Part shown: one piece after another, positions 8,238 through 59,492 of the stretch | How the letters are laid out: the number at the start of each line of letters is the position of its first letter | How positions within the stretch are numbered: position 1 is the stretch's first letter | Origin: Thermoguttaceae bacterium | GTDB taxonomy: Bacteria > Planctomycetota > Planctomycetia > Pirellulales > Thermoguttaceae | Length of the DNA stretch: 64,000 nucleotides | Assembly: GCA_963677085.2 (NCBI GenBank) | Contig: CAXXFH010000006.1 | Location: 43,862 to 107,861, forward strand | Reading direction: 5' to 3' | Made by a program: the position numbers and the translations under genes | Notes under the pieces: generated by a model | What the model was told of the DNA's origin: nothing | Database searches by the model: none | Seen by the model: only the letters and a program-made list of their open reading frames with translations

Positions 8238-8447
8238 ACTCAAACTGAAAACAGAAGGAAGCCGCAGATGAACACAGATACACGCAGATGACGAAAACGA
8301 CTTGGAAACGTGGATTGTCTGGTCGATCACGCCGTGAAGGCGATGCTTTCCAAAAGCCGCTCCACGCCAGATAGTCCGTGCGATGCTATCTGCGTTCATT
8401 TGCGTCCATCTGCGGCTCCAATGTTGGAATCATTTTCAGTTTGAGTA
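8238..8447. repeat. Long imperfect hairpin repeat (family G; GCCGCAGATGAAC..CAGAT arms)
   Basis: Left arm actcaaactgaaaac...gccgcagatgaacacagatacacgcagatg (8238-8291) is complementary to right arm ctatctgcgttcatttgcgtccatctgcggc...ttttcagtttgagt (8387-8447). Confidence 0.6.
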
Positions 8448-10379: not shown

Positions 10380-10538
10380 CACTGTGTAGGCTATGCTTCA
10401 GCATAGCGCGGCTCACGCCGCAACCAATTGGTGCTACCGCACCCACTTCCACTCGGTCCCAAGCTCCAGCTTGGGACCGCACATCCGCGAAGCATTGCTA
10501 GGGCTGTCGCGCTATGCTGAAGCATAGCCTACACAGTG
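10380..10538. mobile_element. MITE-like element with 31-bp perfect terminal inverted repeats
   Basis: cactgtgtaggctatgcttcagcatagcgcg (10380-10410) is the exact reverse complement of cgcgctatgctgaagcatagcctacacagtg (10508-10538). The 97-bp interior carries a family-C half site and a GGTCCCAAGCTCCAGCTTGGGACC hairpin. Confidence 0.6.
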
Positions 10539-13950: not shown

Positions 13951-14601
13951 TCAGTCGACCAGTAAGACGATCAACCGCTTGGGACCGTGAACGCCGAGGA
14001 TCAAGATCTTCTCGATGTCGGCCGTACGACTTGGGCCGGTAATGATCACCGTTTCGCCACGCTGTTGGGCGTCGGCCGCCTGTTTGGCAATCGTTTCCCA
14101 TGCAGCCGGCAGATGTTCGGCCAGGGTTTCGGCCTGGGCCAAAACCACCGAGACCGGCGGCAGATAGCACAACAAGCGTTCTTCGGCCGTGTTGCACGAG
14201 ACGACACAACTGCCCGTATCGGCGAGAAGTTGATCGGCGGAAACCAGGCCGGCGGAAAGCTCGGCCATTGCCTTGGGGTCCCACCCGTCGTGTGCCCAAA
14301 CCACCTGATCCTCGGCCAACCCGGCCACCGCCGTACGGCAAACCGCATTGTCGACCGCACCCAGGCAGCTCCACTCAGACTGCCGAAACAATTCGGCCAG
14401 CCGGTCGGGCACTTCTTCCATCGAGCCGCATCGAACGACCTCGCCCGTAACGGCCGCAAGCTCGGCCAAAAAGCGTTCGACCATCGCTTCCCGCGACGGA
14501 TTGGTCCGCGGCCACACCTCGGGCACGGGCGGCCGTTTCACTTCCGGAGCGTGAGAAACCTCGCTACGAATCCGCGCCAATATTGCTTCGCGACTGTTCA
14601 T
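13951..14601 (-). CDS. lutC: Lactate utilisation protein C (LUD domain)
   Basis: LUD-domain-like sequence (MNSREAILARIRSE..., ...ITGPSRTADIEKILILGVHGPKRL) downstream of lutA and lutB. Confidence 0.8.
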   Translation of the reverse strand: MNSREAILARIRSEVSHAPEVKRPPVPEVWPRTNPSREAMVERFLAELAAVTGEVVRCGSMEEVPDRLAELFRQSEWSCLGAVDNAVCRTAVAGLAEDQVVWAHDGWDPKAMAELSAGLVSADQLLADTGSCVVSCNTAEERLLCYLPPVSVVLAQAETLAEHLPAAWETIAKQAADAQQRGETVIITGPSRTADIEKILILGVHGPKRLIVLLVD

Positions 14602-14655
14602 GATGCGCTTTCTTTTACACCGAATTCAGCCTTTGTCGCTCAACCACTACGGTTC

Positions 14656-14685
14656 TTTTGACAGGATAACAGGATTGACGGGATG
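14656..14685. repeat. Repeat family I arm (TTTTGACAGGATAACAGGATTGACGGGATG)
   Basis: Same arm sequence as at 15161-15180 and 59387-59408. The complementary arm is at 15238-15268. Confidence 0.65.
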
Positions 14686-14710
14686 AAAGAAGAATGGAAT
14701 CCCGCGAATT

Positions 14711-15097
14711 CTACTCCCGCAGCGGTGGATCGAGTATGCGTACCTTGCGTTTCACTTCCACTTTTTCCGGCCCAAAGTTTAGCAGCAGCCCAATATCCAA
14801 ATGAGTCGCAACGAGATAATTGACCAATTGAATCTCGTGGGCGATGGCAAGCTTACGAACGGATTTGAGTTCAACGATGATTCGTTGGTCGACAACAATG
14901 TCTGCTACGAACTCTCCGACCAATTCGTTGTGGTAATATACCTGGATTGGTTTCTGTTCTTCCATCTGCAGCCCGGCGTCGGCCAATTCGATCATCAAGC
15001 ATTTTTCGTACACTGACTCCAGAAACCCAAAACCCATCGTGTTATACACTCGATAAGCACATCCAATAATCTTCTGGGTTGTCTGCTCATGCAACAT
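14711..15097 (-). CDS. GxxExxY protein (PD-(D/E)XK nuclease-fold family)
   Basis: Diagnostic GFGFLESVYEKCL (G-x-x-E-x-x-Y) motif and ...DIVVDQRIIVELKSV... (D...E-x-K) core. Lower GC than its neighbours. Confidence 0.85.
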   Translation of the reverse strand: MLHEQTTQKIIGCAYRVYNTMGFGFLESVYEKCLMIELADAGLQMEEQKPIQVYYHNELVGEFVADIVVDQRIIVELKSVRKLAIAHEIQLVNYLVATHLDIGLLLNFGPEKVEVKRKVRILDPPLRE

Positions 15098-15160
15098 TTC
15101 TTCAACCGTCGCAGCCAGCTTCCGTCAACATTCCAACATGAACCATGCCTACGACATGTT

Positions 15161-15268
15161 TTTTGACAGGACAACAGGATTTCAAGGGTAAACACACCAC
15201 ACATCTCCCGCCAACAAACGTGTGGATCTTACAACACTATCCTGTCCATCTTGTTATCCTGTCAAAAG
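15161..15268. repeat. Repeat family I, complete inverted-repeat unit
   Basis: ttttgacaggacaacaggat ... atcctgtccatcttgttatcctgtcaaaag with an inner ccacac/gtgtgg hairpin. Confidence 0.65.
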
Positions 15269-15279
15269 AAAAACGCGCT

Positions 15280-16707
15280 CTACTTCTCGATCGCCTTCGG
15301 CTTCGGTGCCCCGTTGCGGCGCCAGAGGGTGCGGTAGGCTGGGCCGGGGACCTTCGGGATTTCTCGGCCCCGCGTCCAGCCGCCTAAGTGCCAAACGTGC
15401 AAAAACTTGGGTAGGTACTTCGCCATTCGCGATCCCAGTCGAACGCTCCACATGGCCAAACGATAGCGCCGCGGGCCGGCCATGAAATACGACCACGCCG
15501 TCCACAGCAGCCGCTCGCTGAGCAGGTTCATCGGCGACGGCTCATTGACCGCCCGATGCCGCAAGTGGACCAGTTGGTGCGGGATGTCGATCTTCACCGG
15601 ACAAACCTCGCCACAGGCTCCGCAAAGCGACGATGCAAACGGCAGCTTGGCCGCTTTCATGCCCACCAGGTGCGGTGTGATGATCGAGCCGATTGGCCCC
15701 GGATACACCCAACCGTAGGCCGCTCCGCCCACGCGACGGTACACGGGACACGCGTTCAAACAGGCCCCGCAGCGAATACAGTGCAACGCTCGCCAAGCGG
15801 CGCGGTCTTTGAGGATCTGCGTGCGGCCGTTGTCGAGAATAATTACGTAAAGCTTCTTGCCCGGCGCGGGACCGTGGATGAAGTGGGTGTACGTGGTCAA
15901 CTTTTGGCCGGTGCCGCTGCGGGCCAAGAGATTGAGGAACACGGGCAGGTAGTCGATGCTGGGCAACAGCTTCTCGACGCCCATCAGCGCCACGTGAACC
16001 GGCGGCGTGGCGGTCGACAGCCCGGCGTTGCCTTCGTTCTCGATGATGGTCAGCGTGCCCGTATCGGCAATGGCGAAGTTGCAACCCGACATGCCCATTT
16101 CGGCGTCGAGATAGTCTTGCCGAAGGTGCTTTCGGGCAATCGACGTGAGATGTTGATGCTCGGCGCTGAACGGCTCGTTGAGCTTCTTCTGGAACAGGTG
16201 GCCCACGTCTTCGGCCGACATGTGCAGCGCGGGAGTCACGATGTGCTCGGGCCGCTGTTCGGCCAATTGCACGATGTACTCGCCCAAGTCGGTCTCCACG
16301 GGCCGGATACCTTCGGCCTCGAAGACGTGGTTCAGCTCCATCTCCTCGGAAATCATCGACTTCGACTTGACCACGCTCTTGACGTTGTGCTCCCGGGCGA
16401 TGTCGAGCACCATCTGGTTGGCCTCTTTGGCGTCAGCGGCATAGAGCACGGTGACACCCTTGGCCGAGATATTGCGCTCGAACTCGACCAACAGCTTGTC
16501 GAGGTTGGCGATCACGTAGCTTTTGATTTCGTGAGCCGCTTGGCGCCAGTCCTGGAAATAGGGAATGGCGTCGGTTACCTCGCGGTTGTGCTTGGAGGAA
16601 CGTTCGGTCGCAACCCCCAATGCCTTAGAACCGTGGGGCTCGGCCAGCCCTTTGTTGTTCTGCTTCAGGAATTCCGCGCCGTCGAGTGATACGTGATGCT
16701 CGGACAT
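15280..16707 (-). CDS. lutB: Lactate utilisation protein B (LUD domain + 4Fe-4S ferredoxin-type)
   Basis: CIRCGACLNACPVY and CGACGEVCPV 4Fe-4S motifs plus LUD-domain sequence. The start was moved to ATG 16707 (MSEHHV...) because the longer ORF runs into the composite repeat at 16739-16878. Confidence 0.9.
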   Translation of the reverse strand: MSEHHVSLDGAEFLKQNNKGLAEPHGSKALGVATERSSKHNREVTDAIPYFQDWRQAAHEIKSYVIANLDKLLVEFERNISAKGVTVLYAADAKEANQMVLDIAREHNVKSVVKSKSMISEEMELNHVFEAEGIRPVETDLGEYIVQLAEQRPEHIVTPALHMSAEDVGHLFQKKLNEPFSAEHQHLTSIARKHLRQDYLDAEMGMSGCNFAIADTGTLTIIENEGNAGLSTATPPVHVALMGVEKLLPSIDYLPVFLNLLARSGTGQKLTTYTHFIHGPAPGKKLYVIILDNGRTQILKDRAAWRALHCIRCGACLNACPVYRRVGGAAYGWVYPGPIGSIITPHLVGMKAAKLPFASSLCGACGEVCPVKIDIPHQLVHLRHRAVNEPSPMNLLSERLLWTAWSYFMAGPRRYRLAMWSVRLGSRMAKYLPKFLHVWHLGGWTRGREIPKVPGPAYRTLWRRNGAPKPKAIEK

Positions 16708-16738
16708 AATCGAACCGATGTCGTTTTGGTTACGTTTT

Positions 16739-16878
16739 ACTGGTTTCCATGCTTCGCGTGGGAACCCACTGCCGGACGCTTCGCGCCGTTGTATTACCGA
16801 TGAAACATCTTCCACAACCCTCGACGCGAAGCGTCGAACCCTTGCGTTCCCACGTAAAACGTGGGAACGAGAAAACCC
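16739..16878 (+). repeat. Composite ~135-bp four-hairpin repeat (copy 2), in the lutA-lutB spacer
   Basis: Co-linear with 2231-2370: actggtttccatgcttcgcgtgggaac ... ggacgcttcgcg ... ctcgacgcgaagcgtcgaac ... gttcccacgtaaaacgtgggaacgagaaaa. Confidence 0.75.
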
Positions 16879-16907: not shown

Positions 16908-17681
16908 CTACTCAGCTACCAGCAGTTCCGCAATATGCTTACACTGGATATGCTTCGTGGCCGGGTTACGTCGCATGATGCCATCGACGTGCATCAGGCA
17001 ACTGATGTCCACGGAGGTCACCACGTCGGCCCCGCTCTTGATGATATTCTCGACCTTGGTTTGTCCCATGGCAACCGACGTGCCCGACATCTTCACGCTG
17101 AATGTCCCGCCGAAGCCGCAACATTCTTCGATGTTGGGCAATTCGTGGTACTCTAGATCACGGATATTCTTCAGCAACGAAAGCGGCTGCTCGAACAGGC
17201 CCAACTCGCGACGGCCGTGGCAACCGCTGTGCATGGTCACCTTGTGCGGGAAGCGGGCGCCCGTGTCGGTCACGCCCAGCACGTCGACCAGGAATTCGGT
17301 CAGTTCGAACACCCGGCGGCCGATTTCCACGACCCGGTCGTCGGGATCGACATGGCCGAAGAACACCCGGCACATCGCCGTGCAGGAGCCCGACGGACAG
17401 ACGACCCAGCGATGCTTCTCGAAGGCCTTGCAAAACTGGTGGATCACCCGCTTGGCTTCTTCCCAGTAGCCCGAGTTGAAGGCCGGCTGGCCGCAGCAGG
17501 TTTGCTCCTCGGGATAGACTACCGGAATACCGCGATCGGTCAGCAGTTTGGCCGTGGCTTCGGCGATATGAGGGTAGAACTGATCGATGTAGCAGGGGAT
17601 AAACAGCGCCACGGGCTCGCCCAATTGGTAGGCCGAGCCGTCCGGTTTCGGGGCATGTCCGTTCGAGCTGGATGCGTTCAT
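16908..17681 (-). CDS. lutA: Lactate utilisation protein A ((Fe-S) oxidoreductase, CCG domains)
   Basis: VALFIPCYIDQFYP, CCGQPAFNSGY and ECCGFGGTF are CCG-domain motifs typical of LutA/YkgE. ATG 17681 was preferred as the start; 17720 is possible. Confidence 0.9.
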   Translation of the reverse strand: MNASSSNGHAPKPDGSAYQLGEPVALFIPCYIDQFYPHIAEATAKLLTDRGIPVVYPEEQTCCGQPAFNSGYWEEAKRVIHQFCKAFEKHRWVVCPSGSCTAMCRVFFGHVDPDDRVVEIGRRVFELTEFLVDVLGVTDTGARFPHKVTMHSGCHGRRELGLFEQPLSLLKNIRDLEYHELPNIEECCGFGGTFSVKMSGTSVAMGQTKVENIIKSGADVVTSVDISCLMHVDGIMRRNPATKHIQCKHIAELLVAE

Positions 17682-18068
17682 AGGGCGACAATTACCAGAG
17701 GAAAAAGCACTTAAGACCAATCCATCCGTTATAGCGTCCTCCGCGGAGAATCGCCAGTAGGCCGCCGGCCCCCCACTTGCCGGGCGTCGGTTTGTCGCCG
17801 ATACGTCCGAAAAGCCCGACGTTTTGCGACAACCTTAAGGATTGGACTCGGGAGAAAGTGTGTGCCGCTGGCTATGCCCGTGCCGCAGCACCTTGGTTCC
17901 CACGCTGCAGCGTGGGAACGAGGGGATTTTGCGACAGACGTATCATGCCACTACTTGACACCCGCGCTGCGGGGCATGGTATCATGGGGAGACTCAAGAT
18001 CCCATCATTCTGGGTTCTGGGATTTTCGCTCCCATCGTGCTTCCCGCTTCTTGCCGCCTTGACTCTCC

Positions 18069-23606: not shown

Positions 23607-23765
23607 TCTCACAACCAGATCAACCACGGAGACACGGAGAAGCGAAGATTTGCCGCGGAGTGATATCCGTCTGACTGCTGATGGACTGTCGGACAACCGT
23701 TGTCATAAGTTGTTCCGTGCAAACGACTCCGTGTCCTCCGTCGTCCTCCGTCCTCCGTGGTGAGA
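23607..23765. repeat. Long hairpin repeat (family H; CCACGGAG(G)ACACGGAG arms)
   Basis: tctcac...caaccacggagacacggag is complementary to ctccgtgtcctccgtcgtcctccgtcctccgtggtgaga. Confidence 0.5.
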
Positions 23766-55210: not shown

Positions 55211-55530
55211 AATCCGAATCGCGGCAGTCGGTGACTCGGTTGTATCACCTTGTTCCGCGTGATAGGGATTTTTTACCTGGCGATCATAGGACCGACCGGT
55301 CGGCAGGATTGCCCACGTCGCGGCCGTCGCGGTTCCAAGCGTGTGTGTCGATCCATCGTGATACGAACGTTCGGGAATTTCCCCCAAGTGTACACTCCCG
55401 AGGAGCACACTAAGAGCTCCTCAATTGAAATGCCCACTGAAGTGTCCGTCAAGGCCCCTTGGAAGCGTGGGTGCGCGATTGCAGGTACAACCGCTCCTTT
55501 CGCGCATTCCCACGACGGATAAACCCGCGT

Positions 55531-55598
55531 GTGTGCCACTGGCTCTGCCAGTGCTGGTGACCGTAGCGTTCTCCGCACTGGCAGGGCCAGTGGCACAC
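55531..55598. repeat. Strong 24-bp-stem hairpin
   Basis: gtgtgccactggctctgccagtgc (55531-55554) versus gcactggcagggccagtggcacac (55575-55598): 23/24 complementary with a 20-nt loop. Confidence 0.7.
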
Positions 55599-55835
55599 AA
55601 AGCCGGCCGAAGATACGCTCCCGCAACGTTGACGCGCTACGCCAGAAGACAGCAACTCTCTGTCCCTGACGCCTTCGCCGCTTTGCGAGAACATCCCGTG
55701 AAAACCGAATACCGCGAAATTGGCGGGCGGCTCGTCGCGAACGACGTATCAACCGCCGGCATTCTGCAGCAACAGCGCGATGGGCTGTTCCGGACGGCGC
55801 CGAAAAAACCGAGACCTAACCGTCCCGCCCCGCGC

Positions 55836-57887: not shown

Positions 57888-59357
57888 TTGGTGCTGATCA
57901 CAGGCAGACAATTGCCCGTGCCGCCCGTCGCCCCCGTAACGCGCTTTAAGCACGGACTCGCTTTGTCTGTACCGCTCACCGAGACGCCCGGCATCTTTCG
58001 GCCTATGTTGCGATTGGCGCTGCCGGTCTTGGCCGAGCAGGCTTTGGGGATTCTGGTTTGGTTTTCCGATCGGGTGCTGACCGGCCATTATCTGGAAACC
58101 GCGCATCAGGCCGCCGTTACTTTGATGGCCTACCTGATGTGGCTGGTCGTAGGGATGTTTGCCGTAGTGGGGATCGGTGCCACGGCCATGGTTGCTCGAT
58201 TCGTCGGTGCACACGACCGGCGGCTTGCCCGGCGCGTAACCAATCAGGCCGTCACCGTGGGGGCCGGTTTGGCGATCGCCGTGACGCTGATGGCTTGGGC
58301 CGAAGGCGATCAGTTGATCCGCTGGCTTCAGCTCCGTGGCGAATCGGCTCGACTGGCCGGGATCTACCTGAACTACATGTTGCCGATCATTCCCATGATT
58401 ATGCTCAGCAGCGTGGGCATTGCCTGTTTGCGCGGGGCCGGCGACATGGTGGCCGGCTTGTGGGTGATGTCGATCGTCAATGTGGTCAACGTCCTGGTTA
58501 GTTGGGTCCTGGTGCTCGGGGTCGGACCGTTTCCGTGCATGGGGTGGAGCGGAATTGCGGCGGGAACCATGGTGGGGCATGGCGTGGGCGGACTGCTCGT
58601 GTTGGGGCTGTTGGTCCGCGGACGCTCCGGGTTGCGGTTGCGTTGGCGGTGGATGCGGCCCGACGGGGTGCTGATTCGGCGACTGTTGCGGATTGGGATA
58701 CCGGGCGGGGCCGATATGTTGTCGATGATCGGTTGCCACCTGTGGTTTGTTTCGGTGATCGCGCGCTTGGGGGATGTGGCCACCGCGGCCCACGGCGTGG
58801 CGCTGTGTGTCGAGTCGTTGGGATTCCTTCCGGGCGCTGCATTTCAGGCGGCAGCTACCACGATGACCGGCCAGTACCTGGGTGCTCGGGATTATCATCG
58901 CGCCAATCGCAGTGTTGTGCTGGCCTGTTTGGTCGGCATCGGGTTGATGGGATCGGTGGGCGTGTTGATGTTTACGCTGGCCGAGCCGTTGGCGCGGCTA
59001 TTTGTGCGGGCGGAGCAGATCGACGTTGCCCGGCAAGCGGTCCCGTTGCTGCGCACGGTTTCGATTGCCCAACCGGCGCTGGCCATGGTGTTGATTATCA
59101 CGGGCGCGTTGCGCGGTGCGGGCGATACGCGTTGGCCGCTGATCTTTTCGCTGGTAGGGCTACTGGGAGTACGGATTCCCGGGGCCTACTGGTTGGCTCT
59201 GCCTGAGATCTATATTCCCGTGTTAGGAATCACGATCACCGGCTGGGGCCTGGGCGTGGTGGGCGCCTGGTACGCGATGGCCGTCGACCTTCATGTGCGC
59301 GCGGCCCTGGTGGTTTATCGGTTTTCGCACGGCGGCTGGCGGCGAATCGAAGTTTAG
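57888..59357 (+). CDS. MATE-family efflux transporter
   Basis: LRLALPVLAEQALGILVWFSDRVLTGH, 12 TM helices and the duplicated MATE pattern (RGAGDMV / RGAGDTRWP). The start is uncertain (TTG 57888 to ATG 58005). Confidence 0.85.
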   Translation: MVLITGRQLPVPPVAPVTRFKHGLALSVPLTETPGIFRPMLRLALPVLAEQALGILVWFSDRVLTGHYLETAHQAAVTLMAYLMWLVVGMFAVVGIGATAMVARFVGAHDRRLARRVTNQAVTVGAGLAIAVTLMAWAEGDQLIRWLQLRGESARLAGIYLNYMLPIIPMIMLSSVGIACLRGAGDMVAGLWVMSIVNVVNVLVSWVLVLGVGPFPCMGWSGIAAGTMVGHGVGGLLVLGLLVRGRSGLRLRWRWMRPDGVLIRRLLRIGIPGGADMLSMIGCHLWFVSVIARLGDVATAAHGVALCVESLGFLPGAAFQAAATTMTGQYLGARDYHRANRSVVLACLVGIGLMGSVGVLMFTLAEPLARLFVRAEQIDVARQAVPLLRTVSIAQPALAMVLIITGALRGAGDTRWPLIFSLVGLLGVRIPGAYWLALPEIYIPVLGITITGWGLGVVGAWYAMAVDLHVRAALVVYRFSHGGWRRIEV

Positions 59358-59386: not shown

Positions 59387-59492
59387 TTTTCGACAGGATA
59401 ACGGGATGTTCAGGATAGAGGGTACTGACTCAAGACATCAAACAGAGACATCCCGTCGATCCTGTTTATCCTGTCAAAAAAGGAAGCCGGGG
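59387..59492. repeat. Repeat family I, complete inverted-repeat unit
   Basis: ttttcgacaggataacgggatg ... catcccgtcgatcctgtttatcctgtcaaaaaagg. Confidence 0.65.

Follow-up and report, generated by a model that had tools for sequence, protein, structure and literature searches.

The window (the whole stretch of 64,000 nucleotides that was analysed) carries on its reverse strand the lutABC operon, within which a low-GC insert holding a GxxExxY gene separates lutB from lutC. The features relevant to this insert, together with a related foldback found elsewhere in the window, are the following.

13951–14601, reverse strand: lutC, encoding LUD-domain lactate utilisation protein C; host gene on the downstream side of the insert (open reading frame; PF02589, 3e-26).
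14653–14684, reverse strand: right (3′) end of the cassette, forming an inverted repeat with 15239–15270 (arm matches; local hairpin).
14711–15097, reverse strand: GxxExxY gene, 128 aa, PD-(D/E)XK nuclease (PF13366, 3e-41; TIGR04256, 3e-42).
15098–15160, reverse strand: leader, from the upstream foldback to the ATG.
15161–15270, reverse strand: complete gene-less foldback forming the left (5′) end of the cassette (inverted repeats; DNA fold z-score −2.2).
15280–16815, reverse strand: lutB, encoding a LutB/LldF iron-sulfur protein; host gene on the upstream side of the insert (open reading frame and profile matches).
16908–17720, reverse strand: lutA (open reading frame call and profile search).
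59387–59481, no strand assigned: gene-less ACAGGAT-family foldback with arms 59387–59417 and 59450–59481, located 30 nt past the stop of the open reading frame 57888–59357.

The original prediction placed the lutB stop at 15280 and the lutC start at 14601, with 678 bp and a GxxExxY (PD-(D/E)XK) gene between them, which is confirmed by the open reading frames and by the profile matches listed above. Its GC estimates of about 45–50% for the insert and about 60–70% for the flanks agree with the computed values (0.44–0.485 over 14600–15300 versus 0.59–0.65 in lutB and lutC). The inverted arms, predicted at 14656–14685 and 15238–15268, were found at 14653–14684 and 15239–15270 (32 nt, 91% complementary), with the left one starting 10 nt past the lutB stop codon. 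The extra inner arm reported at 15161–15180 is also present and is the local partner of the outer left arm, pairing with 15248–15267 (20 nt, 90%), and the cargo-free inverted repeat described at 59387–59492 was found at 59387–59481. As for the spacing of lutB and lutC in relatives, which the prediction proposed to compare, the two genes overlap by 4 nt and have no insert in locus L202, whose LutC is 64% identical to that of the window. At the level of the family, this locus is an empty site. LutC homologues number 1137; the named ones come from Pirellulales/Thermoguttaceae, and the nearest are at most 69% identical.

Each arm comprises three tandem ACAGGAT-type heptamers. On the coding strand the outer left arm (15239–15270) reads TTCTTTTGACAGGATaACAAGATggACAGGAT, and the right end reads ATCCCGT-ca-ATCCTGT-t-ATCCTGTCAAAAGAA, that is, three inverted heptamer units and CAAAAGAA, of which the innermost unit (14679–14684) can pair with 14699–14704. 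In the window copy the upstream "arm" is half of a complete gene-less foldback, and the downstream arm (14653–14684) alone is a simple end. The outer left arm contains a sigma70-like TTGACA-18-GATAGT that points into the GxxExxY gene. According to a coding-strand comparison with 41 family leaders, judged by eye, the leader is a diverged member of the family (..ATCACAGCCTGAAGGAGGnnnnATG) with a degenerate ribosome-binding site (GAAGAAATG); the window copy combines an atypical left end with a weak ribosome-binding site.

With up to 3 mismatches allowed, GACAGGATAACAGGAT occurs 4 times in the window versus 0.19 expected, and none of 100 shuffles reached 4; a fifth arm was picked up by blastn-short. 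The foldback at 59387–59481 has a DNA fold z-score of −3.5, and 0 of 200 shuffles were equally stable. Several other foldback families are present in the window as well. The arms and foldbacks match no Rfam family, whether searched at E ≤ 5 (window) or at the gathering score (12 loci). An intrinsic terminator was rejected, since on both strands the hairpin has the T-run before it and the A-run after it; the single terminator-like site detected is unrelated.

The 128-aa protein belongs to the GxxExxY family according to both profiles, scoring 143.7 bits for TIGR04256 (cut-off 35) and 140.8 bits for PF13366 (PDDEXK_3, cut-off 22). Its family motif is G24-F-L-E27-S-V-Y30, and the putative catalytic residues D66, E76, and K78 are invariant across 21 aligned sequences, in which only two cysteines, C13 and C33, are conserved. 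For the AlphaFold2 model (pLDDT 90), Foldseek ranks Cas4 SSO0001 (4ic1, E = 7e-5) first, ahead of lambda exonuclease and MGME1; the predicted structure is an alpha-beta nuclease core similar to Cas4 and lambda exonuclease, with the GxxExxY motif and a D...ExK arrangement. Sequence search against solved structures returned a single match, HAUS1, which is spurious. Pfam and NCBIfam find only PDDEXK_3/GxxExxY in the cassette reading frame and no recognised transposase class. A defence-system identity was also rejected, since the PADLOC defence library gave only weak matches, to Cas4 and to the candidate model PDC-M36A (E = 0.003–0.009), and the PHROGs phage library gave none for the window protein. 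PF13366/TIGR04256 comprises 24,309 clusters at 50% identity (E ≤ 1e-3). Its function is given as unknown (PMC3424549), and no account of GxxExxY/PDDEXK_3 function or of flanking repeats was found in the full-text literature.

The layout of the window copy was compared with that of its close relatives, represented by 80 metagenomic loci with proteins 63–73% identical to the window's. ACAGGAT arrays of three tandem units are located upstream in 70 of 75 loci (93%), an inverted array lies directly 3′ of the stop codon in 64 of 77 (83%), matching the right end of the window copy in position and orientation, and arrays are found on both sides in 56 of 72. The background rate is 18 arrays in 194 kb, or about 1 per 10.8 kb. 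In 43–44 of 47 cassettes from many hosts, the two outer heptamers match ACAGGAT perfectly, which argues for sequence-specific recognition and not mere self-complementarity. In the reverse test, at least 119 genome loci were found by arm pattern alone, and GxxExxY is the sole recurrent small neighbour among them. Where an HMM match exists, the gene lies within 300 bp of an arm in 7 of 8 loci; at L086, tblastn additionally detects a fragment of the gene, 121 bp away from an arm. Across the 119 genome loci, the arms have no recurrent transposase family as neighbour.

The layout is shared by distant GxxExxY clades, whose sub-repeats differ (CACAGAGG, CGCGAAGG, and others). The Bacteroides and Bernardetia loci and another five loci from a distant clade carry arrays of the CAC[AG][GA]A[GT][GA] type, none with ACAGGAT; the Sphingomonas locus has the related array CGCGAAGG, also without ACAGGAT, and the Gemmatirosa locus an 11-mer array. 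The type of sub-repeat thus follows the protein clade, and an inverted-repeat-bounded single-gene cassette is the rule for the GxxExxY family. The ACAGGAT arms are found across many bacterial phyla and also in archaea. Gene-bearing cassettes were seen in bacteria only, and foldbacks in both Bacteria and Archaea, ranging from Planctomycetota to Methanoperedens. The original prediction suggested that a repeat element carries a nuclease-fold gene, and that this fits the patchy occurrence of GxxExxY genes in multiple copies. It is supported and extended by the array counts in close relatives, the clade-specific arms, the gene-less and partly deleted forms, and the overlap of lutB and lutC in L202. 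As far as the loci compared allow, the outcomes that the prediction named as refuting it did not materialise. Of its wording that the element can carry, or has captured, the gene, the first part stands; capture is less likely, since the arms have the look of ends belonging to the gene family itself, not of a separate repeat by which the gene was acquired.

Regarding mobility, cassettes 96–98% identical over ~520 nt occur in different flanks. Target-site duplications of 8 bp were found at L136, L164, L170, and L173, as well as at the gene-less L063, and are confined to this one sub-family, which has extra outer termini (GTAATAGTTCACC.../...GCTGAACTATTAC). No duplication was detected at plain ACAGGAT ends, where the best direct repeats equal the shuffled-pair control, and none is present at the window copy. 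The outer terminus of the duplication sub-family is also found on a remnant of a different GxxExxY clade, a hint that a module of its own may confer mobility. Internal deletions form a series (L004, L020, L029, and L034) grading to gene-less hairpins, and compact foldbacks make up 44 of 96 arm loci.

Most genome arm loci are gene-less, intergenic, and located beside ordinary genes, with arms falling inside long open frames in 12 of 85 cases versus 79% for random positions. Cassettes sit in short gaps between co-oriented operon genes, and the upstream neighbour is co-oriented with the cassette in 43 loci versus 6; operon-internal insertion sites include lutB|lutC, fabD|fabG, and V-ATPase B|D. 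The GC content of the gene is below that of the flanks in 46 of 46 loci. In five orthologous loci the cassette has been kept at one site through ~20% flank divergence, with the arms being the best-conserved part, which would be expected of a resident that functions in situ no less than of a parasite. A phage or plasmid vehicle was rejected: the phage and viral collections yielded no match, no relative lies on a viral contig, and cassettes are present in only 8 plasmid or chromid records.

The explanation that we prefer, and to which we assign slightly better than even chances, is that 14653–15270 is a member of a widespread group of inverted-repeat mobile cassettes of ~0.5–0.6 kb, the nuclease of which acts on the arrays. 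The cassette unit consists of one gene for a ~125-aa GxxExxY PD-(D/E)XK protein and about three tandem heptamers per end (ACAGGAT in this clade), with the ends inverted, and its internal deletion yields gene-less foldbacks of the MITE/REPIN type, such as 15161–15270 and 59387–59481. The heptamer arrays are most likely recognised by the nuclease, which would bind those of its own clade and cut DNA, mobilising the cassette along with the gene-less derivatives, and insertion would be completed by host repair or replication. Alternatively, cleaved gene-less foldbacks may be repaired from a gene-bearing copy in a homing-like manner. As for the mobilising chemistry, we infer it; to our knowledge, a stand-alone PD-(D/E)XK nuclease of ~125 aa is no known transposase, and strand transfer is unexplained by it alone. 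Expression would rely on host-operon read-through, on the TTGACA-containing left end, or on both, and the inverted arms probably pair into a stem within the operon transcript and thereby reduce polar damage. No description of the cassette family was found in the literature, and we read it as undescribed, with MITE/REPIN-like gene-less derivatives.

Part of the evidence on the termini points to a different arrangement. Clear 8-bp duplications exist only where extra outer termini do, and the same outer terminus is found on a cassette of a different GxxExxY clade; moreover, GTAA-starting termini with 8-bp duplications recall what we take to be IS66-type ends, and we know of no transposition by PD-(D/E)XK nucleases alone. 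Under this explanation, the element would be a mobile insertion cassette or a MITE whose arms or outer termini are recognised in trans by an unlinked conventional transposase, and GxxExxY would be its cargo, with a role other than mobility, for example in addiction, defence, or repair. We consider it unlikely, since no transposase family recurs beside the arms at the 119 genome loci, arrays are kept even at a long-resident orthologous site, and heptamer type co-varies with protein clade across phyla, which unrelated cargo would not require. The weakness of the Cas4/PDC-M36A matches (E = 0.003–0.009) and the empty phage-library search also speak against it.

The insert may also be viewed as an RNA-level element like the 23S rRNA intervening sequences, in which the arms would act mainly in the operon transcript, as a ~30-bp stem whose cleavage by RNase III releases or insulates the reading frame, and the DNA would be a selfish or neutral insert thereby tolerated. 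Its size, ~28–32-bp stem, single small reading frame, low GC, and sporadic distribution mirror the Coxiella intervening sequence (PMC4990558), and the strong co-orientation of cassettes with their neighbours and their packing between operon genes point in the same direction. We nevertheless find this explanation improbable. No locus lies in rRNA, gene-less foldbacks are located between convergent genes as well, conservation across hosts extends to the heptamer sequence and not just to its complementarity, and mismatches between left and right units have no sense-strand G:U bias (12 of the G:U type versus 10 of the A:C type, a comparison of low power). Besides, it explains tolerance and not spread, and is compatible with the mobile-cassette explanation. 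Ordinary host extragenic palindromes (terminators, mRNA stabilisers, or protein-binding sites) that flank an unrelated acquired gene by chance would suit the gene-less, intergenic position of most genome arm loci beside ordinary genes, and the presence of several other foldback families in the window. Such a coincidence, however, is hardly credible and is already contradicted by the gene–arm association, which reaches 78–93% in relatives versus about 1 array per 10.8 kb, and by arms whose type follows the protein clade. The same arms are found in many bacterial phyla and archaea, unlike host-specific palindromes, and the T-run located before, not after, the hairpin gives no terminator geometry.

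Returning to cassettes acted on by their own nuclease, we tentatively consider a stronger form of this explanation, in which GxxExxY cassettes would be autonomous ~0.5-kb transposons whose sole protein recognises the clade-specific arrays and spreads both the cassettes and REPIN-like foldbacks; the balance is against it at present. If true, it would mean that prokaryotes have a mobile element of a new enzymatic class, and it would explain a family of >24,000 clusters at 50% identity. Were the nuclease the mobilising enzyme, it would provide a compact sequence-specific nuclease/site pair, and the cassettes would be the smallest autonomous prokaryotic DNA elements known to us. The analysis turns a "hypothetical small nuclease" into a bench-testable hypothesis that names the protein, the DNA/RNA site, and the expected mobility. 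In addition, it offers an explanation for one class of foldback repeats in intergenic DNA, and it points to a cause of insertions inside operons and of artefacts in assembly and annotation, among them host stop codons or C-terminal tails that the arms encode.

In comparison with known systems, integron attC cassettes are similar in having a promoter-less small gene with an imperfect palindrome, co-oriented and expressed from upstream. The arm TTTTGACAGGAT..., however, has no GTTRRRY/RYYYAAC core sites, the palindrome halves are located on both sides of the single gene, and the cassette is solitary within the lutABC operon, not part of an array beside an integrase (intI). Cas4/RecB-like nucleases and lambda exonuclease have the core fold and the D...ExK arrangement in common with the GxxExxY model. 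In contrast to Cas4, the GxxExxY protein (128 aa) is half the size and lacks the four-cysteine Fe-S module; its neighbours are lutB and lutC with no cas genes nearby, and the PADLOC Cas4 match has E = 0.004.

Insertion sequences, MITEs, and mobile insertion cassettes resemble the GxxExxY cassettes in their terminal inverted repeats (32 nt and 91% in the window; on both sides in 56 of 72 relatives), near-identical copies elsewhere, a deletion series down to miniatures, and duplications in one sub-family. The only reading frame of the cassette, however, is a 125-aa nuclease without a DDE, HUH, serine, or tyrosine recombinase domain, and no cognate transposase-bearing element was found beside the arms. 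At ~0.5 kb, the cassette is below the smallest insertion sequences known to us.

The intervening sequence of Coxiella burnetii with S23p is a selfish 23S rRNA insert excised by RNase III (PMC4990558). It is likewise an insert of ~430–500 nt with a ~28-bp terminal stem around one small reading frame, a GC content below that of the host, and a sporadic distribution suggesting horizontal transfer. The cassette differs from it in sitting among the protein-coding genes of an operon and not in helix 25 or 45 of the 23S rRNA, in encoding a different protein family, and in having arms of sequence-conserved tandem heptamers. A 23S context was rejected, as no rRNA similarity was found in ~218 loci or in the window.

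As for the REPIN–RAYT systems, they comprise REP doublets and REP-associated tyrosine transposases (PMC3116915, PMC3337134). The cassette enzyme is of the PD-(D/E)XK and not the HUH/Y1 (IS200/IS605-like) type, with Pfam and NCBIfam showing only PDDEXK_3/GxxExxY. The GxxExxY gene is multi-locus and transferred across phyla, whereas RAYT is single-copy and vertical, and the cassette arms are three tandem heptamers, with 8-bp duplications in one cassette sub-family. The two systems nevertheless have several traits in common. A gene for a nuclease or recombinase stands between short palindromic repeats that belong to it, intergenic DNA contains numerous scattered hairpin doublets lacking the gene (59387–59481 and 15161–15270 in the window), each protein clade has its own type of repeat, and loci can persist for a long time.

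The gap between lutB and lutC in the window measures 678 bp and contains a single ORF, which scores 3e-41 against PF13366 (PDDEXK_3) and 3e-42 against TIGR04256 (GxxExxY). GC content across 14600-15300 is 0.44-0.485 versus 0.59-0.65 in the flanking genes. The relevant features are as follows.

13951-14601 (-), lutC
14653-14684 and 15239-15270, outer inverted arms bracketing the insert (32 nt, 91% complementary)
14711-15097 (-), GxxExxY gene, 128 aa
15161-15180, inner arm, pairing with 15248-15267
15280-16815 (-), lutB
16908-17720 (-), lutA
59387-59481, gene-less foldback with arms as in the insert

Everything described here by the original prediction is present, namely the ORF, the widened spacing, the GC drop, the arms, the inner arm, and the foldback. 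Each arm consists of TTTTG followed by three tandem heptamers (ACAGGAT, ACAGGAT, and ACrGGAT). The window has 4 matches to the 16-mer GACAGGATAACAGGAT with at most 3 mismatches, versus 0.19 expected (0 of 100 shuffles gave as many), and a fifth arm is detected by blastn-short. The upstream arm of the window copy belongs, as one half, to a complete gene-less foldback at 15161-15270, and the left arm holds a sigma70-like TTGACA-18-GATAGT, as judged by consensus match, directed into the gene. As for the gene start, a public protein collection contains the product as 108 aa from M21 (P0001); the family alignment favours the ATG at 15097 (128 aa, MLHEQTTQKIIGCAY...), and the ribosome-binding site is degenerate relative to the family consensus GAAGGAGG.

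A scan of a metagenome collection based on aligned close homologues (alignment A1) yields 80 loci with proteins 63-73% identical to the window protein. Almost all carry, on the coding strand ~45-60 nt upstream of the ATG, TTTGACAGGATaACAGGATnnACAGGAT, then ATCCAGT as a short partner, and then the conserved leader ..ATCACAGCCTGAAGGAGGnnnnATG, as well as [ACAGGAT]-loop-ATCaTGTnnATCCTGTtATCCTGTC(A/T)AAAA immediately 3' of the stop codon. When an array is defined as two or more units with a spacing of 7-10 nt and no more than 1 mismatch, 70 of 75 loci have one upstream of the gene, 64 of 77 downstream, and 56 of 72 on both sides, with a background of 18 arrays in 194 kb in the rest of the same loci. 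The median array-to-array length is 495 bp. Judging from these sequences, the inverted arms appear to be the gene family's own ends.

A search of species-representative genomes with the arm pattern alone gives at least 119 loci, the chance estimate being ~35 if uniform base composition is assumed. Among the matches listed, many phyla are represented, including the archaeon Methanoperedens, and GxxExxY is the sole recurrent small protein adjoining an arm, lying within 300 bp of it in 7 of the 8 loci with an HMM match; compact gene-less foldbacks make up 44 of 96 evaluable arm loci in the same set. A further GxxExxY gene fragment is found by tblastn 121 bp from an arm (L086). Arms fall inside long open frames in 12 of 85 cases versus 79% of random positions, i.e., coding sequence is avoided.

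The same design, with other sub-repeats, recurs in more remote GxxExxY genes, whose products share 33-43% identity with the window protein:

Arms of distant GxxExxY genes
Bacteroides (L204), arm TTCACCACAGAGGACGCAGAGGACACGGAG, 30 nt, 90% complementary
Bernardetia (L207), CACAGAGA units, 28 nt, 86% complementary
Sphingomonas (L210, between fabD and fabG), CGCGAAGG units, 25 nt, 92% complementary
Gemmatirosa (L206), GTCCTTCTTCA 11-mers, 42 nt, 98% complementary
Treponema (L205), single inverted repeat, 16 nt, 88% complementary

Two other loci (L208 and L209) have no flanking arms at the thresholds used. Five more loci of the Bacteroides-type clade have arrays of CACAGAGG, CACGAAGG, or CACAGATT, and none has ACAGGAT. 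Among proteins with CAC..AGG-type arms, identity is 37-55%, but it is only 32-39% to the ACAGGAT clade. In the latter, 43-44 of 47 non-redundant cassettes (gene plus flanking arrays), from hosts of 35-67% GC, match ACAGGAT exactly at the outer two heptamers. Array sequence, beyond self-complementarity, is thus kept within a clade and replaced between clades, as would be expected of arrays read by the encoded protein.

A second type of foldback, likewise gene-less, lies at 23614-23765 in the window; its right arm (23735-23765) is CTCCGTGTCCTCCGTCGTCCTCCGTCCTCCGTGGTGA, in reverse complement TCACCACGGAGGACGGAGGAC... It matches the TTCACCACAGAGG... arms of Bacteroides-type genes (L204, L213, L216, and L218), so the host probably carries a second GxxExxY/foldback family. 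Another foldback (8260-8417) has 30-nt arms, 83% complementary, with three tandem units of ~10 nt (CGCAGATGAA, CACAGATACA, and CGCAGAT); CACAGAT-type units also flank a GxxExxY gene in L212. All sub-repeat types are purine-rich with GGA (ACAGGAT, CACGGAGG, CGCGAAGG, and GAAGAAGGAC), their complements being CCT/TCC-rich (window 14653-14684 and 23735-23765; L204, L206, and L210), and resemble Shine-Dalgarno sequences. They also resemble the CAGGAUG repeats of CsrB, which bind CsrA; Rfam gave no CsrB match.

Neighbouring genes are typically co-oriented with the cassette, both upstream (43 loci versus 6) and downstream (41 versus 13), and cassettes are wedged between closely packed operon genes. 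Such sites include lutB/lutC in the window, fabD/fabG (L210), V-ATPase B/D, UDP-glucose dehydrogenase/epimerase, and Rieske-type protein/multihaem cytochrome (L122). The last insertion is common to five related genomes, with identities of 65-90% for flanking genes, 98% for the left arm, 83-94% for the gene, and 91% for the right arm. Cassettes can thus be long-term residents with constrained arms. In L122 the host TGA stop overlaps the first bases of GACAGGAT, the stop of the Rieske-type gene (2928-2930) being supplied by TTTGACAGG; likewise, several database GxxExxY proteins, including P0034, P0052, and P0058, have heptamer arrays translated into NPVNPVHPV or QDKQDK tails at their C-termini. 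Such stops and tails are annotation artefacts due to the repeats.

The original prediction looked to related genomes for an empty site. In L202, which shares synteny and has a LutC 64% identical, the lutB and lutC reading frames share 4 nt, an empty site at family level. A different repeat family occurs at the same junction: a TATGCTTCAGCATA palindrome lies just 5' of lutC in two relatives (L200 1-299 and L201 1-110), whose contigs start or break nearby, and is related to a perfect 31-nt inverted repeat of the window (CACTGTGTAGGCTATGCTTCAGCATAGCGCG, 10380-10538, 97-nt loop). Two more strong hairpins or foldbacks (2232-2363 and 55530-55599) have 25-nt arms, 92-96% complementary.

As for mobility, cassettes of L136, L145, L157, and L170 are 96-98% identical over ~520 nt in unrelated flanks. 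They are members of a sub-family distinguished by additional outer termini (GTAATAGTTCACC...GCTGAACTATTAC), and 8-bp direct repeats border its insertions: GAAAAAAC/GAAAAAAC in L136, GGTGAAAC/GGTGAAAC in L164, CTTTAGCA/CTTTGGCA in L170, CTCAAACG/CTCAAGCG in L173, and TATTTAAG/TATTTGAG in the gene-less, 96-nt L063. By our own calculation, a 7/8 match at fixed offset has a chance of ~4e-4 per locus. Target-site duplications cannot be detected at plain ACAGGAT ends, and the window copy is among these. A deletion series in one MAG (left arm, leader, 3' gene remnant, and right arm, 170-280 bp in total) connects full cassettes to gene-less foldbacks. Gene GC is below flank GC in 46 of 46 loci (mean difference -10 points) and correlates with host GC (r = 0.83). 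In L020 (1-260), what is left of a decayed GxxExxY gene of the CACAGAGG-type clade terminates in ...CTCTGTGCCTCCGTGGTAAGCTGAACTGTTAC, the outer terminus of the 8-bp-duplicating ACAGGAT sub-family, and in L106 (1950-2090) a distance of 35 nt separates an ACAGGAT-type arm from a CCTCTGTGGTGA arm. For mobility, the outer termini may constitute a module of their own.

In the encoded protein, D66, E76, K78, and the GxxExxY motif are invariant across A1. Its AlphaFold2 model is confident (pLDDT 90), with Cas4 SSO0001 as the top structural match (E 7e-5, TM 0.57), followed by lambda exonuclease, MGME1, and tRNA-splicing endonucleases; a sequence search found no solved homologue. PADLOC reports weak matches to Cas4 and the candidate model PDC-M36A (E 0.003-0.009), and PHROG none. 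The family comprises 24,309 clusters at 50% identity (E<=1e-3). Some members (P0361-P0366 and others, 250-270 aa) have two GxxExxY domains in tandem, as two matched stretches, and represent either genuine fusions or read-through from one cassette into the next.

The idea of a repeat element carrying a nuclease-fold gene is therefore supported and generalised, given the arrays flanking relatives, the clade-specific arms, and the signs of mobility. We lean slightly towards a mobile inverted-repeat cassette with MITE/REPIN-like derivatives, whose nuclease would recognise the heptamer arrays and supply the mobilising cleavage. Insertion might then be completed by the host, or by homing-like copying into cleaved gene-less foldbacks; the gene could be expressed from the left arm or by operon read-through, and in RNA the stem of the arms may shield expression of the operon. 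The analysis demonstrates the cassette architecture, the co-variation of repeat and protein clade, how the cassettes insert, and the target-site duplications of the one sub-family; binding, cleavage, and autonomy are inferred. It is possible, though less likely than not, that the cassettes are autonomous elements of a new enzymatic class.

It is unlikely that the cassette is a passenger moved by an unlinked transposase: target-site duplications do occur only where outer termini are present, and a remnant of another clade carries the same terminus, but repeats co-vary with protein clade and no recurrent transposase adjoins the arms among the matches listed. A primarily RNA-level element has a close structural analogue in the Coxiella intervening sequence (PMC4990558); it appears quite improbable, however, as the sense strand shows no G:U bias (12 versus 10, a comparison of low power) and the spread would be left unexplained. 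Ordinary host palindromes flanking the gene by coincidence are hardly credible, being contradicted by the clade-specific arms and by relatives with arrays on both sides (56/72).

Full-text literature searches with the family names and the arm sequence returned nothing on function or flanking repeats, and no description of the gene-arm association appears in the literature that could be searched. An integron cassette was rejected, the insert having no attC cores and not standing in an array. Among known systems, REPIN-RAYT (PMC3116915, PMC3337134) is closest in working, although the cassette enzyme is not the HUH/Y1 transposase that defines that system. IS/MITE pairs are similar but have a recognised transposase, and 23S rRNA intervening sequences are similar, but the insert does not lie in rRNA. 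In kind, the cassettes would belong with those mobile elements that have inverted-repeat ends and non-autonomous derivatives.
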